From sequence record ON568341.1: a DNA stretch of 64,000 bases. One strand, 5' to 3'. Every line of letters begins with the position of its first letter. Within the stretch, counting starts at the first letter, position 1. The stretch comes from Escherichia phage UE-S1. Shown one piece after another: positions 29,153 through 34,589 of this stretch. The notes beneath the pieces were generated by a model. The model did not search any database. It was not told the DNA's origin and saw nothing but the letters and a program-made list of their open reading frames with translations. The position numbers were made by a program, and so were the translations under genes.

Positions 29153-29572
29153 ATGATGAATTTTAACCCAGCAAAAATCACTAACACAAAACAGGCACAA
29201 GGTATATTCCCAATAACAAATATTGGGAAGTATAAATCAAACAATCCACCAATATATCGCAGTTCTTGGGAGAAAGACATAATGGTTTCTCTGGATCAAA
29301 ATCCAGCAGTTATTGAATGGAGTGTTGAACCATTTAGTATACCATATGTAAATCCCGTTGATAATTGTGTTCACAATTATTTCCCTGATTTTTATGTTCT
29401 TTATATTGGTGTTGATGGTAAACAACATGCTCAAGTACTTGAAGTTAAACCGTATAAACAATGTCATATGGAACTTGCAAAATCAAAAAAAGATAAGATT
29501 ACAGTAGCGATTAATCAGGCGAAATGGGCTTATGCAATGGAATTTTGTAAGAATAACCGGATTGGAATTTAA
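29153..29572 (+). CDS. hypothetical protein
   Basis: ORF track. Confidence 0.45.
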
Positions 29573-29602
29573 AATTATTACAGAAAGGAATTTATATAAA
29601 AA

Positions 29603-30163
29603 ATGAAACCTAAACAAAAAATAGACGAAGCACTTGGATTACCTAGTGCTGAACAGTGGATGCAAATGACTGGTCAAACCACCAATGAAGACTGTGCTGA
29701 AATGGAACTATATCAAGATAGTGATGAAATTGAAGAAACTGAAATCTCATTGGATGAAGCAAAAGCTGCAATGGAAAAATTAAAAGCAATGCGTGTACAA
29801 TTACGTGATCTACCAGACATTACATCTAGAAAAGTCCAATTAGATCGATTGGCACAAATGGCAGAACGAAAGTTTGAAGATATTTTTGATCGTGCTTTTA
29901 ACTGTGAAGACCGCTTTGCGGCTGAAATGATAAATTCAGCAAATTCTATGTTAAAAATTGCATTAGACGCCCATGCCAAGATTATTGATTCTGATGTTAA
30001 GTTAGTTGATTTACAACTTAAGAAAGATAAAATGGAAATTGAACTTAATATGAAGCCAAAAAGTGCAACTGAATCAGTTGGTGACCCAACAGCGATTGAA
30101 GGTCAAAAGGTAGTTCATAAAACTCGCAATGAAATGCTTGCTGCTATGAAAGAAAATAAATAA
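29603..30163 (+). CDS. hypothetical protein (charged, helical)
   Basis: ORF track; RBS AAAGGAA. Confidence 0.5.
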
Positions 30164-30192
30164 CTAAAACATCTATTTAATGGAGTTATTAA

Positions 30193-30729
30193 ATGAACAA
30201 GCTACAACAAATTCTAACACAAAATAAGCCTGTATATGAATATCGTGTCAAATTTGCATTTGAGCCTAGTGCTGAACAATTGAGTAAAGTAACGCAACGT
30301 CTTGTTGATCGTTATGATGCTTTTGAAGTTGGTGCGTTAAAGAAAACAATTTTTATGGAAAAACCACTAGATTTTTATGAACTTGATTGTGGTGAAATTT
30401 GGATGTTTGATTTTAAATGCAATCGTGGTGTACAGTCTAATGTACTAATGTATGAAATTGGAAACCTTCTATCTGTCACCGAAGCACTTATTCGTGTTCG
30501 TAATAAAGATGAACCTCGTCAAATTGAAATGACTGATTTGGAAGATGATATTGATTTTGATGATATCGATGAACCAATTATCGGGGTGGATTTTGGGAAA
30601 CCAGAAGACAGTTATGATTTAGCAGGACAAGAACGTGCTGATACAGCAGTTTCTGATGCAATTGATGCATTTAAAAAAGACAATAAATACTCTCAATATA
30701 TGAGTGCTGGTTTTGGTAAAAAGGATTAA
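30193..30729 (+). CDS. hypothetical protein
   Basis: ORF track; RBS GGAG. Confidence 0.5.
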   Translation: MNKLQQILTQNKPVYEYRVKFAFEPSAEQLSKVTQRLVDRYDAFEVGALKKTIFMEKPLDFYELDCGEIWMFDFKCNRGVQSNVLMYEIGNLLSVTEALIRVRNKDEPRQIEMTDLEDDIDFDDIDEPIIGVDFGKPEDSYDLAGQERADTAVSDAIDAFKKDNKYSQYMSAGFGKKD

Positions 30730-30732
30730 CAC

Positions 30733-31284
30733 ATGAGTATACTTAATGAAATGTTAGACTATGATGACAAAGAGTTAAACGAGGCTCGCCCATATAGTCG
30801 TTCACAAAGTGCTATTGATAGTGCTAAAGGTAAAGTGAAAGGTTTTTTTGGTAGTGGGCAAATTGAACAAGGTGCACAAGAAGTTGGTGCTGAAGCGAAC
30901 AAGTTGTGGGCTGAGTTTAAACGATATGTAGGCCGCAAATATGGAAAAGCACAGCCAACCGTACCTTATGCTGATGTTGCACAGTTTTTTAAAGGGAACA
31001 ATCTTGATATTAAATACTTGGGTAATAATACACGTCGTTCTTTTACACCAAAAGATGTAGGTACTGCTTTATTAAACGCTGCTCGTGATCTAATGAATGA
31101 CTATCGTGACCAACAAGGCGAGGAAGAACGTTCTGAACCACAACAGTCACAGCGTACTGCACCAGAACAGCAAGAACAGCCAGCACAACAAGAACAACCA
31201 AAAGCACAAGGTTCCAGTATCCCTGATGCTCTACAAAAATTAAGTCCAGAGCAACGCGACCAACTGTTACGTATGCTTTCTTAA
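30733..31284 (+). CDS. hypothetical protein with Gln/Glu-rich low-complexity C-terminal region
   Basis: ORF track; EQQEQPAQQEQPKAQ tract. Confidence 0.5.
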   Translation: MSILNEMLDYDDKELNEARPYSRSQSAIDSAKGKVKGFFGSGQIEQGAQEVGAEANKLWAEFKRYVGRKYGKAQPTVPYADVAQFFKGNNLDIKYLGNNTRRSFTPKDVGTALLNAARDLMNDYRDQQGEEERSEPQQSQRTAPEQQEQPAQQEQPKAQGSSIPDALQKLSPEQRDQLLRMLS

Positions 31285-32803: not shown

Positions 32804-32825
32804 TAACTAAAAGGATTTATTTAAA

Positions 32826-33806
32826 ATGGCTAAAAAAATTAATGAAGCACAAGTTAAAATCGATATCGCAGGTTTAGAATCTGATGATTTGGAAACACTA
32901 TCCCGTATGTTAGCTCTTGCTGGTCAAGCTGAACGTCAAGACCCTGTGGTTGCTGCTCCAGTATCATCTATTGGGTCTATGGCTCCATCTCTACCACCTA
33001 TTGCACCACTAGATCTTGATTCTATTAGTGCCGAAAAAGAAATTGGTGGAATTGAAACTTCAGTTGAAGATCCATTGGCAGCAGCAGTTGATGGTCTTTC
33101 CGCTGATGATGGTGATTTTGGTGCTGACACCGATGAAGTTGGTATTGATGCTGAATTTTCAGAACCAGGCGTAGAAGGTGAAGAAGATTTTTCTCTTGAC
33201 CTTAGTGGTCAACCTCAACTAGAATCAGTTGAAGAAGACGACGATGAGGAAGAAGAAATCATCGAAGAAGAATTCGATTTTAGTCGTATGCTATCTCTTG
33301 CTGGTATTAACGAAGAAGAAGACGACGATTTTTCCGTAGAGGGTAATACTGCTACTGATAGAGAAATGAAAGATACTCAATTTCTACCAGATCTAAGTAT
33401 CTCTGAAGATGAAGAACCATCTGACAGTACTGATTATGGTCCATATAATACTGAAGCTGATGCAGTTCGTGATGGTCAACTTAAGACTAATGGTGTTGAA
33501 GGTGATCATTTTGTTGTAATTGCGAAAGGGAACCAGTTTTATTGGAGACGTGTTGTAGATGAAGATGTTGACAATCGTCCAGAACCAGAGTATTATGACA
33601 ATGAAGGAAACGAAAATCGCGTTCATAAATTTGAACCAAAATCTCCAGGTACTGCATTAGGAGATAACCCACTCAATGTTAATGAAAGTGAAGAAGATGA
33701 TTCACCAGAAGGTAACACTGACTTGGAAGATGACTCTGATGAAGAAGTAGAAGATATTTTCGAAAGTCTCCAAGAAAAATATAAAAAATTTTTAGGAGAC
33801 AAATAA
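32826..33806 (+). CDS. highly acidic hypothetical protein with repeated SRML-x-LAG motif
   Basis: Long Asp/Glu runs (EEDDDEEEEIIEEEFD); LSRMLALAGQ and FSRMLSLAGI repeats. Confidence 0.5.
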   Translation: MAKKINEAQVKIDIAGLESDDLETLSRMLALAGQAERQDPVVAAPVSSIGSMAPSLPPIAPLDLDSISAEKEIGGIETSVEDPLAAAVDGLSADDGDFGADTDEVGIDAEFSEPGVEGEEDFSLDLSGQPQLESVEEDDDEEEEIIEEEFDFSRMLSLAGINEEEDDDFSVEGNTATDREMKDTQFLPDLSISEDEEPSDSTDYGPYNTEADAVRDGQLKTNGVEGDHFVVIAKGNQFYWRRVVDEDVDNRPEPEYYDNEGNENRVHKFEPKSPGTALGDNPLNVNESEEDDSPEGNTDLEDDSDEEVEDIFESLQEKYKKFLGDK

Positions 33807-33807
33807 T

Positions 33808-34203
33808 ATGCAATATAATTATCGTGAACTAGTTGAAGCGTTGGACGAAATCACCGGACGAGATGAAGAAGGAAGTTTTTCCGTTGAAGTTGATTCCGAT
33901 GTTGTAGCAATTGATGTTCTTAAAGATATTACCAAATGTCTCGTTGATATTGTTGATAAGATTAAATCTGGTGAAGATCAAAAAGAAATCGTTGATAAAC
34001 TACAAAAAGCATGTGACATTTTGTCTGACATTCGATATAATGATGAAAGTACTGAAGTCGATGATGATGAAGTGATGGAAGCTATTGCTGGATGTTTTGG
34101 AACTGAAGGTATGGGTCCAACGATTGACAAAGATGGCGTACAGCACTATAATGAACCAGATGCACCATCTTATGCTGCACGCCAAGGTTATGTTGGAGAC
34201 TAA
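33808..34203 (+). CDS. acidic hypothetical protein
   Basis: ORF track; RBS GGAGA. Confidence 0.5.
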   Translation: MQYNYRELVEALDEITGRDEEGSFSVEVDSDVVAIDVLKDITKCLVDIVDKIKSGEDQKEIVDKLQKACDILSDIRYNDESTEVDDDEVMEAIAGCFGTEGMGPTIDKDGVQHYNEPDAPSYAARQGYVGD

Positions 34204-34208
34204 AATAT

Positions 34209-34589
34209 ATGTTTCCTGTACCATCACATAACAGTACTGAATATCAAAATGATGTACTTTCCAAAGTTAGGGAAGTACATGAATCAGATTCAGAAATAAC
34301 AGACCGTATGCTTCTGATGTCAATTTTTGAAAATTTCAGAACTGGCGGTGGTTTACGTCTTAGCAAGTTTGGGTATGGAATTTGTAAAGAAAATAATCTT
34401 TATGAATTTACAAAAATCCCCTTGCAAAGAGAATTTAAAAGTTCTATAATGTTTACATCACTTGACAGAATATGTACTTCACCTTATTATGTTGAAGGTC
34501 AGTACATATATCTGACAGATGCAATGATAATAACTGAATTAACATTGTGTTGTGATGATTTTAAACAATTATTTTCTATTCATATGTAA
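34209..34589 (+). CDS. hypothetical protein
   Basis: ORF track; RBS GGAGA. Confidence 0.45.
   Translation: MFPVPSHNSTEYQNDVLSKVREVHESDSEITDRMLLMSIFENFRTGGGLRLSKFGYGICKENNLYEFTKIPLQREFKSSIMFTSLDRICTSPYYVEGQYIYLTDAMIITELTLCCDDFKQLFSIHM

Follow-up and report, generated by a model that had tools for sequence, protein, structure and literature searches.

Candidate prohead-loaded internal head proteins encoded next to the tail-tube genes of Rak2-like jumbo phages

In bacteriophage T4, the prohead protease gp21 cleaves after the sequence L/I-X-E, often between Glu and Ala, and the first ten residues of the internal protein IPIII form a capsid targeting sequence (PMC9026906). The inner-body proteins of phage phiKZ are likewise cleaved after a Glu, at S/A-X-E (PMC9026906). 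The T4 protein IPI* is a packaged anti-restriction protein of which only the targeting sequence is conserved (PMC3012670). Here, we discuss a block of eight open reading frames (ORF1-ORF8) found at positions 29,153 to 34,589 of a 64,000-nucleotide (nt) stretch of DNA from Escherichia phage UE-S1 (sequence record ON568341.1), referred to below as the window. On balance, we lean towards a model where several of the block proteins (ORF2, 3, 4, 6 and 7) are internal head proteins that are loaded into the prohead and trimmed by the phage protease. A location inside the virion is favored because several of these proteins carry an N-terminal targeting and cleavage signature of the T4 type. The eight genes are as follows (a slash marks the predicted cleavage site):

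29153-29572, + strand: ORF1, 139 amino acids (aa); by homology a T4 gp4-type head-completion nuclease with a TnsA-like PD-(D/E)xK fold; PHROG 218
29603-30163, + strand: ORF2, 186 aa; acidic (isoelectric point, pI, 4.9) and helical; PHROG 16202; N-terminus MKPKQKIDE/A
30193-30729, + strand: ORF3, 178 aa; virion protein, N-terminal domain folded, tail acidic; PHROG 14802
30733-31284, + strand: ORF4, 183 aa; PHROG 16152; conserved LNE (residues 15-17) immediately preceding RPYSR; Gln/Glu-rich C-terminal region
31298-32803, + strand: ORF5, 501 aa; modular virion protein without the targeting signature; PHROG 16305
32826-33806, + strand: ORF6, 326 aa; polyanionic, mostly disordered virion protein; PHROG 15988
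33808-34203, + strand: ORF7, 131 aa; small acidic helical virion protein; PHROG 14971; N-terminus MQYNYRELVE/A
34209-34589, + strand: ORF8, 126 aa; conserved, without the signature; PHROG 15638; final gene of the block

Nucleotide comparison of the block gave matches in 72 phage records, which are about 310-386 kb in length except for a few shorter, partial ones. The best matches, with 89% identity over the whole block length, are the Asteriusvirus coliphages UB, PBECO4, 121Q, phAPEC6 and SP27, and weaker matches are found in phages of Klebsiella, Salmonella, Erwinia, Yersinia, Cronobacter, Pectobacterium, Serratia and Xanthomonas and in one Vibrio jumbo phage. As judged from sequence identity, the window comes from a Rak2-like jumbo myophage, about 89% identical at the nucleotide level to Asteriusvirus 121Q/PBECO4; it differs from every deposited phage, and its closest protein clusters are 93-94% identical. 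Orthologous blocks of eight genes, alike in order and flanks, are gp555-562 of 121Q, ORF045-052 of RaK2, GAP32_202-209 and gp208-215 of CBB. In a sample of nine relatives from at least five genera, the gene order is in all cases (9/9) sheath, three tube paralogs, gp4-like nuclease, seven ORFs, MoxR ATPase and VWA/DUF2201 protein. This order spans Asteriusvirus, Alcyoneusvirus, Mimasvirus, Eneladusvirus, Munch, XaC1 and Hallingskeid, and two metagenomic contigs keep the arrangement even though their ORF6 homologue is only 26-34% identical. Because the order is kept in all of these relatives and in the metagenomic contigs, the block is considered to be a core module of the Rak2-like clade rather than an accessory island. 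The products give full-length matches to the eight PHROG families listed above (E 1e-57 to 1e-224), and those of ORF2-8 match no PHROG other than their own. The gene set is already catalogued in about 70 phages, where one function is known, five products are virion-borne and the mechanism is known for none; a literature search found no paper that gives a function or a particle location for the block proteins.

The virion-borne products were identified from published mass spectrometry (MS) of whole virions (Table S3 for RaK2, Table 4 for CBB and Table 1 for phAPEC6):

RaK2 virions (tandem MS): gp047-gp051, corresponding to ORF3-7
CBB virions: CBB_210, 213 and 214, corresponding to ORF3, 6 and 7
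phAPEC6 virions: gp270c, 268c and 267c, corresponding to ORF3, 5 and 6

These data show that counterparts of ORF3-7 in related phages are physically present in purified virions. For ORF1, ORF2 and ORF8, the virion MS of RaK2, CBB and phAPEC6 detected no orthologue. It could be argued that the detected proteins serve in assembly or are simply abundant late products, and that they co-purify with virions without having a defined place in the particle: the ORF6 orthologue is represented by one peptide each in RaK2 and phAPEC6, and the phAPEC6 virion list also holds non-structural proteins, i.e., thymidylate synthase, a RecA-like protein, SSB and the MoxR ATPase. However, the same orthologues were found independently in three phages of three genera, the coverage of the ORF3 orthologue is high (60% for CBB_210, 41% for phAPEC6 gp270c) and five peptides were obtained for CBB_213. 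Furthermore, few tryptic peptides are expected from ORF6 in any event, because its acidic middle part is nearly devoid of Lys and Arg. We consider simple co-purification to be very improbable.

The N-termini of ORF2, ORF6 and ORF7 fit the pattern M-x(2-8)-[LI]-x-E-[AS], and that of ORF4 (...KELNE/A) does so less strictly. When applied in its strict form (^M.{2,8}[LI].E[AS]), the pattern is found in 3/8 genes of the block (Fisher p = 0.001) as compared to 1/99 other genes, a background set composed of the window and 49.5 kb of 121Q that includes sheath, tubes, baseplate and fibres. The head module of 121Q served as an out-of-sample check, and here 4/5 genes carry the strict signature (Fisher p = 5e-6). 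The order in this module is portal gp598, gp599, gp600, gp21-like protease gp601, scaffold gp602 and capsid protein gp603, with the following starts:

gp599: MLKDIFE/S
gp600: MANLKLLQE/A
gp602, scaffold: MSKLEKLLKE/S
gp603, capsid protein: MSQLLNE/S

The product gp601 is, by homology, a genuine gp21 relative (29% identity to T4 gp21, E 2e-15), i.e., the protease is shown in 121Q, its gene lying beyond the window. Two genes between the portal and this protease occupy the positions of T4 gp67 and gp68: gp599 (L012:33551-33778) encodes 75 aa, and gp600 (L012:33880-34728), beside the protease gene, encodes an extremely acidic virion protein of 282 aa with a pI of 4.06. Outside the block, the only gene with the strict signature is a DprA-like gene at 38737-39330 (+ strand; MKKNELDE/A), which may be a chance match or encode another packaged protein.

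The signature is kept across ten phages in ORF2, ORF4, ORF6 and ORF7. In ORF2 it is retained as [IV]xEALGLP in 10 phages, and in ORF4 the [LI]xE that precedes PY(S/G) extends to the distant loci L092 and L093. An exhaustive phmmer search placed the N-terminal domain of ORF3 in a wide family with 200 representative homologues, and the N-terminal consensus of this wider family, MK[ST][FL]x[DEQ]Y[LI]xE[SNA], is near to MKTYQEFIAE/A of T4 IPII/IPIII. For ORF7, a word-indexed homologue search yielded 7 close relatives only, too few for signature statistics.

According to the model that we favor, ORF2, 4, 6 and 7 and the ORF3 family would be recruited to the prohead core via a short N-terminal peptide ending in [LI]-x-E. 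This peptide would be cut off after the Glu by the T4 gp21-type prohead protease of the phage, as is the case with T4 IPI-III, Alt, gp67 and gp68. The processed ORF6 and ORF7, which are strongly acidic and largely disordered, would remain in the capsid with the DNA and may act as internal, possibly ejected, proteins or as space-filling polyanions. ORF2 is proposed to be lost from the head, because it carries the signature yet is absent from virions; it would be a core- or scaffold-type protein that is degraded and expelled, and ORF3, 4, 6 and 7 would stay as internal proteins.

The features of ORF6, a very acidic protein, are:

32826-32846, + strand: propeptide-like MAKKINE/A
32901-32924, + strand: SRMLALAG, at residue 26
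33282-33305, + strand: SRMLSLAG, at residue 153, followed by INE
33426-33560, + strand: small beta-alpha-beta-beta domain, aa 201-245

ORF6 contains 95 Asp+Glu (29.1%) and 22 Lys+Arg, giving a net charge of -73 and a pI of 4.05; ORF7 has the same pI and a net charge of -22. Each of the two motif copies in ORF6 scores about 31 bits against a hidden Markov model (HMM) built from the family, which has no other match in the window. In the AlphaFold 2 model of ORF6 the confidence (pLDDT) reaches about 90 in aa 203-242 and is 57 for the protein as a whole; 148/326 residues fall below 50. Order is predicted for helices over the two SRMLxLAG motifs, the beta-alpha-beta-beta domain and a C-terminal helix, and the remainder, including the acidic region, is predicted to be disordered. 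A Foldseek search of this model against the PDB gave no match with E < 3. Among 100 ORF6 homologue clusters, the net charge ranges from -41 to -95, the N-terminal signature is found in 94/100 and two motif copies in 68/100. The mean identity among these clusters is 80% for aa 1-36 but 34% for the acidic region (aa 37-147).

This maintenance of an extreme negative charge in spite of sequence drift in the acidic region, together with the presence of the proteins in virions and the precedent of T4 IPI* (PMC3012670), would also be consistent with ORF6 and ORF7 being packaged, injected DNA mimics or decoys that block restriction or other defences, a role that is compatible with a location inside the head. 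Several observations make this role unlikely. The folded part of ORF6 is predicted to comprise aa 203-242 only and the acidic region to be disordered, unlike the rigid mimics Ocr and ArdA, and neither Pfam nor the PDB gave any likeness to known mimics. The ORF6 gene is present as a core gene, in single copy and in strict synteny, in phages of Escherichia, Klebsiella, Erwinia, Yersinia and Xanthomonas, a pattern not typical of anti-defence cargo.

The same results bear on the first-pass annotation of the window. Its description of the genes largely stands: all eight ORFs are present on the + strand (8/8, with 1-30 nt between neighbours), the 326-aa acidic protein with a repeated SRML-[AS]-LAG is ORF6, the second acidic protein (33808..34203) is ORF7, the Gln/Glu-rich protein is ORF4 by virtue of its C-terminal stretch and the 501-aa protein with an internal duplication is ORF5. 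The low pI that it suggested computing is found for both ORF6 and ORF7. Its portrayal of eight unknown genes was overstated, since ORF1 is by homology a T4 gp4 counterpart and the others fall into PHROG families labelled "virion structural protein"; for ORF1, the statement that there are no recognisable structural motifs is incorrect (PF08722, PHROG 218). Homology to head or tail assembly proteins, which was taken there as the result that would speak against it, was found for ORF1 only, ORF2-8 having no match. Nor are portal, scaffold and capsid genes displaced by the block in the sense of being absent, as the cluster is found in 121Q about 60 kb downstream, beyond the end of the window. The proposal of virion-internal or anti-defence functions fared unevenly. 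Virion association is borne out by MS for ORF3-7, and an internal site is favored by the signature, but DNA mimicry or anti-restriction has no positive evidence: the idea derives from charge alone and finds no support, the acidic region of ORF6 is predicted to be disordered rather than to offer a rigid, DNA-shaped surface, and the block lies within a structural operon as a core module whose conservation is strict, which sets it apart from variable, accessory anti-defence loci.

A more specific location within the head can be considered. In 121Q and phAPEC6, an inner body is seen that is phiKZ-like in bubblegrams and radiation-sensitive, and the authors of the phAPEC6 study only guessed at its proteins, as RCC1-like. 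Its dimensions are given as 91 x 18 nm. Because this inner body has no assigned proteins, the acidic proteins of the block are candidates. Tentatively, ORF3, 4, 6 and 7, together with acidic proteins of the gp600 type, might be among the proteins that form the inner body, or ejected-protein bolus, in Rak2-like jumbo phages, a possibility that we hold to be less than likely at present. If so, T4-type targeting peptides would load a polyanionic, disordered core, with about 350 kb of DNA spooled around it, the SRMLxLAG helices and the beta-alpha-beta-beta domain of ORF6 would provide assembly contacts, and the bolus would have no sequence relationship to the phiKZ inner-body proteins and be independent of them. 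No homology was found between ORF6 and gp600.

A number of observations weigh against an assignment of the block proteins to the head interior. The MS data refer to whole particles and so do not tell head from tail or neck, and the authors of the RaK2 study noted that several virion proteins run at their predicted mass. The block is apparently co-transcribed with the tail-tube genes and lies about 60 kb from the head module. In BLASTP comparisons of the block proteins with T4 IPI-III, gp67 and gp68 nothing was found below E 0.2, and neither by sequence nor by fold are the block proteins homologous to these T4 proteins or to phiKZ inner-body proteins. A proposed link between the SRMLxLAG motif and the scaffold tail failed both HMM tests described below. 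The signature itself is short and was partly defined after inspection of the data. It is lacking in ORF5, which is among the better-detected virion proteins; in ORF2, the position of the Glu is shifted in the two most distant relatives; ORF3 of the window starts with MNKLQQILTQ, i.e., with Q at the predicted P1 position, as compared to Glu in 121Q, GAP32 and CBB; and the most distant relatives show no clear signature in ORF7. Because there is no homology to T4 IPI-III, gp67 and gp68, the claim made here for ORF2, 3, 4, 6 and 7 is that they would work like these proteins, not that they are members of their families.

Some of these points are shared by an alternative model, in which the block encodes neck, tail or surface-decoration components (collar, anchors of tail "hairs", elongated decorations) that assemble with the tail. 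The block is found directly 3' of the sheath gene and the three tube paralogs with no strong terminator-like site between, a gp13-like neck gene and the gp4-like gene are located nearby, and phAPEC6 and CBB bear collar or tail decorations and fibres that have not been assigned to genes. In addition, ORF5 proteins differ in their number of modules, with total lengths from 315 to about 760 aa, but share a conserved, anchor-like C-terminal domain, a build often seen in exposed decoration proteins. On the other hand, tail proteins of the window and of 121Q (sheath, tubes, baseplate, fibres) lack the [LI]xE[AS] sequence that bona fide prohead proteins have, a disordered polyanion with a net charge of -73 would be an odd tail component, and fold searches gave nothing like known tail, neck or fibre proteins. 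For the block as a whole we find this alternative doubtful. ORF5, and perhaps ORF3, would fit it best; a tail or decoration role should be kept in mind for at least ORF5, because it has no signature and displays a decoration-like modular build.

The architecture of ORF5 comprises a duplicated domain (aa 9-122, 31322-31663, and aa 297-405, 32186-32512; 30% identity, pairwise E 3e-13), a variable middle domain, low-complexity linkers and a highly conserved C-terminal helical domain (aa 445-498, 32630-32791). Its homologues (P0101-P0176) are about 290-330 aa in length when the middle domain is absent (RaK2, Munch), about 500 aa, or 640-760 aa; this size range apparently reflects modules having been gained and lost, and the XaC1 gene is split into three ORFs.

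Returning to the SRMLxLAG motif of ORF6, it was considered as a mimic of the C-terminal tail of the scaffold, an idea that was dropped after two unbiased HMM tests and is now regarded as a loose resemblance. A regular expression formulated after the fact had hits in 113 kb only at the motif of ORF6 and at the extreme C-terminal end of the gp22-like scaffold, but an HMM of 44 scaffold tails did not retrieve ORF6 and an HMM of 89 ORF6 motifs did not retrieve the scaffold. The scaffold tail is conserved in 77 homologues, where it reads ..FLKELDVLSGINKK up to the stop, or ..IRKLAGLSK in distant relatives. All gp22-like scaffolds of the clade and of environmental relatives at 33-38% identity (L013-L090, IMG/VR) end with an acidic stretch, an amphipathic helix and L-[AS]-G-[ILM]-x-K, for example DVVELDQIRKLAGLSK before the stop. 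This conserved ending is probably a docking tail, and the C-terminus of T4 gp22 is unlike it.

The one product of the block with a recognizable function is ORF1, which from its sequence is a T4 gp4-type head-completion nuclease with a predicted role in head-tail joining. It matches Pfam PF08722 (E 9.8e-17, 61.7 bits, gathering cutoff 26.5), PHROG 218 "head closure" (E 1.2e-39) and, in BLASTP, T4 gp4 itself (30% identity over 126 aa, E 9e-14), and the nuclease motif E...PDF...E[VI]KP (E58, PDF, E[VI]K) is invariant across 10 phages. A C-terminal stretch of ~12 residues (..FKLITEKxLYKK), found in every other genus examined, is missing from the nucleases of the window phage and 121Q.

For ORF2-8, scans against Pfam and NCBIfam gave no match. 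Profile searches against PDB sequences with ORF2, 3, 4, 7 and 8 returned nothing meaningful, the matches of ORF7 being designed coiled coils only, and Foldseek against BFVD returned family members only. No homology of the block proteins to T4 gp22 or gp2 was detected, and scans of the window for tRNA and Rfam families were empty. A match of ORF7 to the phiKZ internal head protein family (PF12699, phiKZ_IP) was rejected (E 0.057; score 13 bits, cutoff 27; seen in only 2/12 family members). The label "Hsp70" attached to ORF4 through PHROG 16152 is unfounded, as there is no Pfam or NCBIfam HSP70 match and the protein is only 183 aa in length, and the label "RED-N" on ORF4 orthologues is likewise unsupported by these scans. 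The C-terminus of ORF4 (31180-31281) resembles sigma-70 region 4 (TIGR02937) with a weak, sub-threshold E of 6e-4, the only NCBIfam match, which was treated as noise; the family has a conserved ending, ..LSxLSxxxRxQLLRxLS.

A distant ORF3 homologue (P0204) is found in a metagenomic T4-like contig (L095:4305-9553), where the ORF3-family gene is part of a six-gene run. Four products of this run start with M-R-L-x-E and the other two with MNLWE and MSRFRELLE/S, and two give matches to the PHROG for protein kinases of the T7 gp0.7 type. As far as can be told from these matches and starts, the run resembles a cassette that encodes host-takeover proteins targeted to the capsid and injected.

The transcription signals around the block are:

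26035-26058: strong terminator after the sheath gene
27125-27146: terminator after the first tube gene
34602-34629 and 34695-34722, + strand: two perfect tandem sigma-70 promoters of the extended -10 type, TTGACA-16 nt-TG-TATAAT
36238-36265: terminator after the MoxR gene
37730-37752: terminator after the VWA gene

On the + strand between 27146 and 34589, i.e., from the second tube gene to ORF8, there is no terminator-like site with at least 6 stem pairs, and the block itself contains a single 5-pair site at 30636-30648. The arrangement of these sites is consistent with apparent co-transcription of the block with the tail-tube genes. The two promoters, with near-identical spacers, are found in a 303-nt gap 5' of the MoxR ATPase gene and suggest strong (early) transcription of the MoxR/VWA pair by the host RNA polymerase. 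The MoxR orthologue of phAPEC6, gp265c, was found in virions (6 peptides) despite the early-type promoters. The T4 late-promoter octamer TATAAATA occurs at one site in the 64 kb (13674-13681, - strand), as compared to 10.4 +/- 3.1 expected from shuffled sequences, and was rejected as an operon marker; because it is depleted in the window, it provides no promoter information. A 390-nt gap between the sheath gene and the first tube gene (26030-26421) varies in content, with a 41-aa ORF annotated in phAPEC6 and a 134-aa gene in Yersinia phage fHe-Yen9-04.

The copy of the block in the window is in itself ordinary, and its value is as a lead on the capsid-internal proteins of Rak2-like jumbo phages, of which 121Q and phAPEC6 are the only phages outside the phiKZ group reported to have a phiKZ-like inner body. 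The signature offers a cheap rule to predict prohead-loaded, protease-cut proteins in these phages, and it nominates ORF2, 3, 4, 6 and 7, gp599 and gp600. If the rule is true, it would also provide a targeting tag for packing foreign proteins into a very large capsid, similar to the T4 capsid targeting sequence.

The locus can also be compared to other described systems. T7 Ocr and ArdA are rigid, folded dimers with DNA-like charge spacing. With these proteins ORF6 shares a high density of Asp and Glu, but differs in its predicted disorder. For the phiKZ and SPN3US inner-body proteins, the authors of the phAPEC6 study likewise found no homologues. ORF1 shares the Pfam domain and the PD...ExK motif with T4 gp4 (gp50/gp65); in T4, however, gene 4 adjoins gene 2, which encodes the DNA end protector, whereas a gp2 homologue was not detected in the block. 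Finally, the T4 internal and prohead-core proteins, like several of the block proteins, have a short N-terminal peptide that ends in [LI]-x-E and is followed by Ala or Ser, and among them gp67, a small protein with a pI of 4.05 that starts with MEGLIE/A, is a precedent for a small, polyanionic core protein. In contrast to the genes of the T4 internal proteins, those of the block adjoin the tail-tube genes rather than the protease gene, and are conserved core genes rather than variable cargo.

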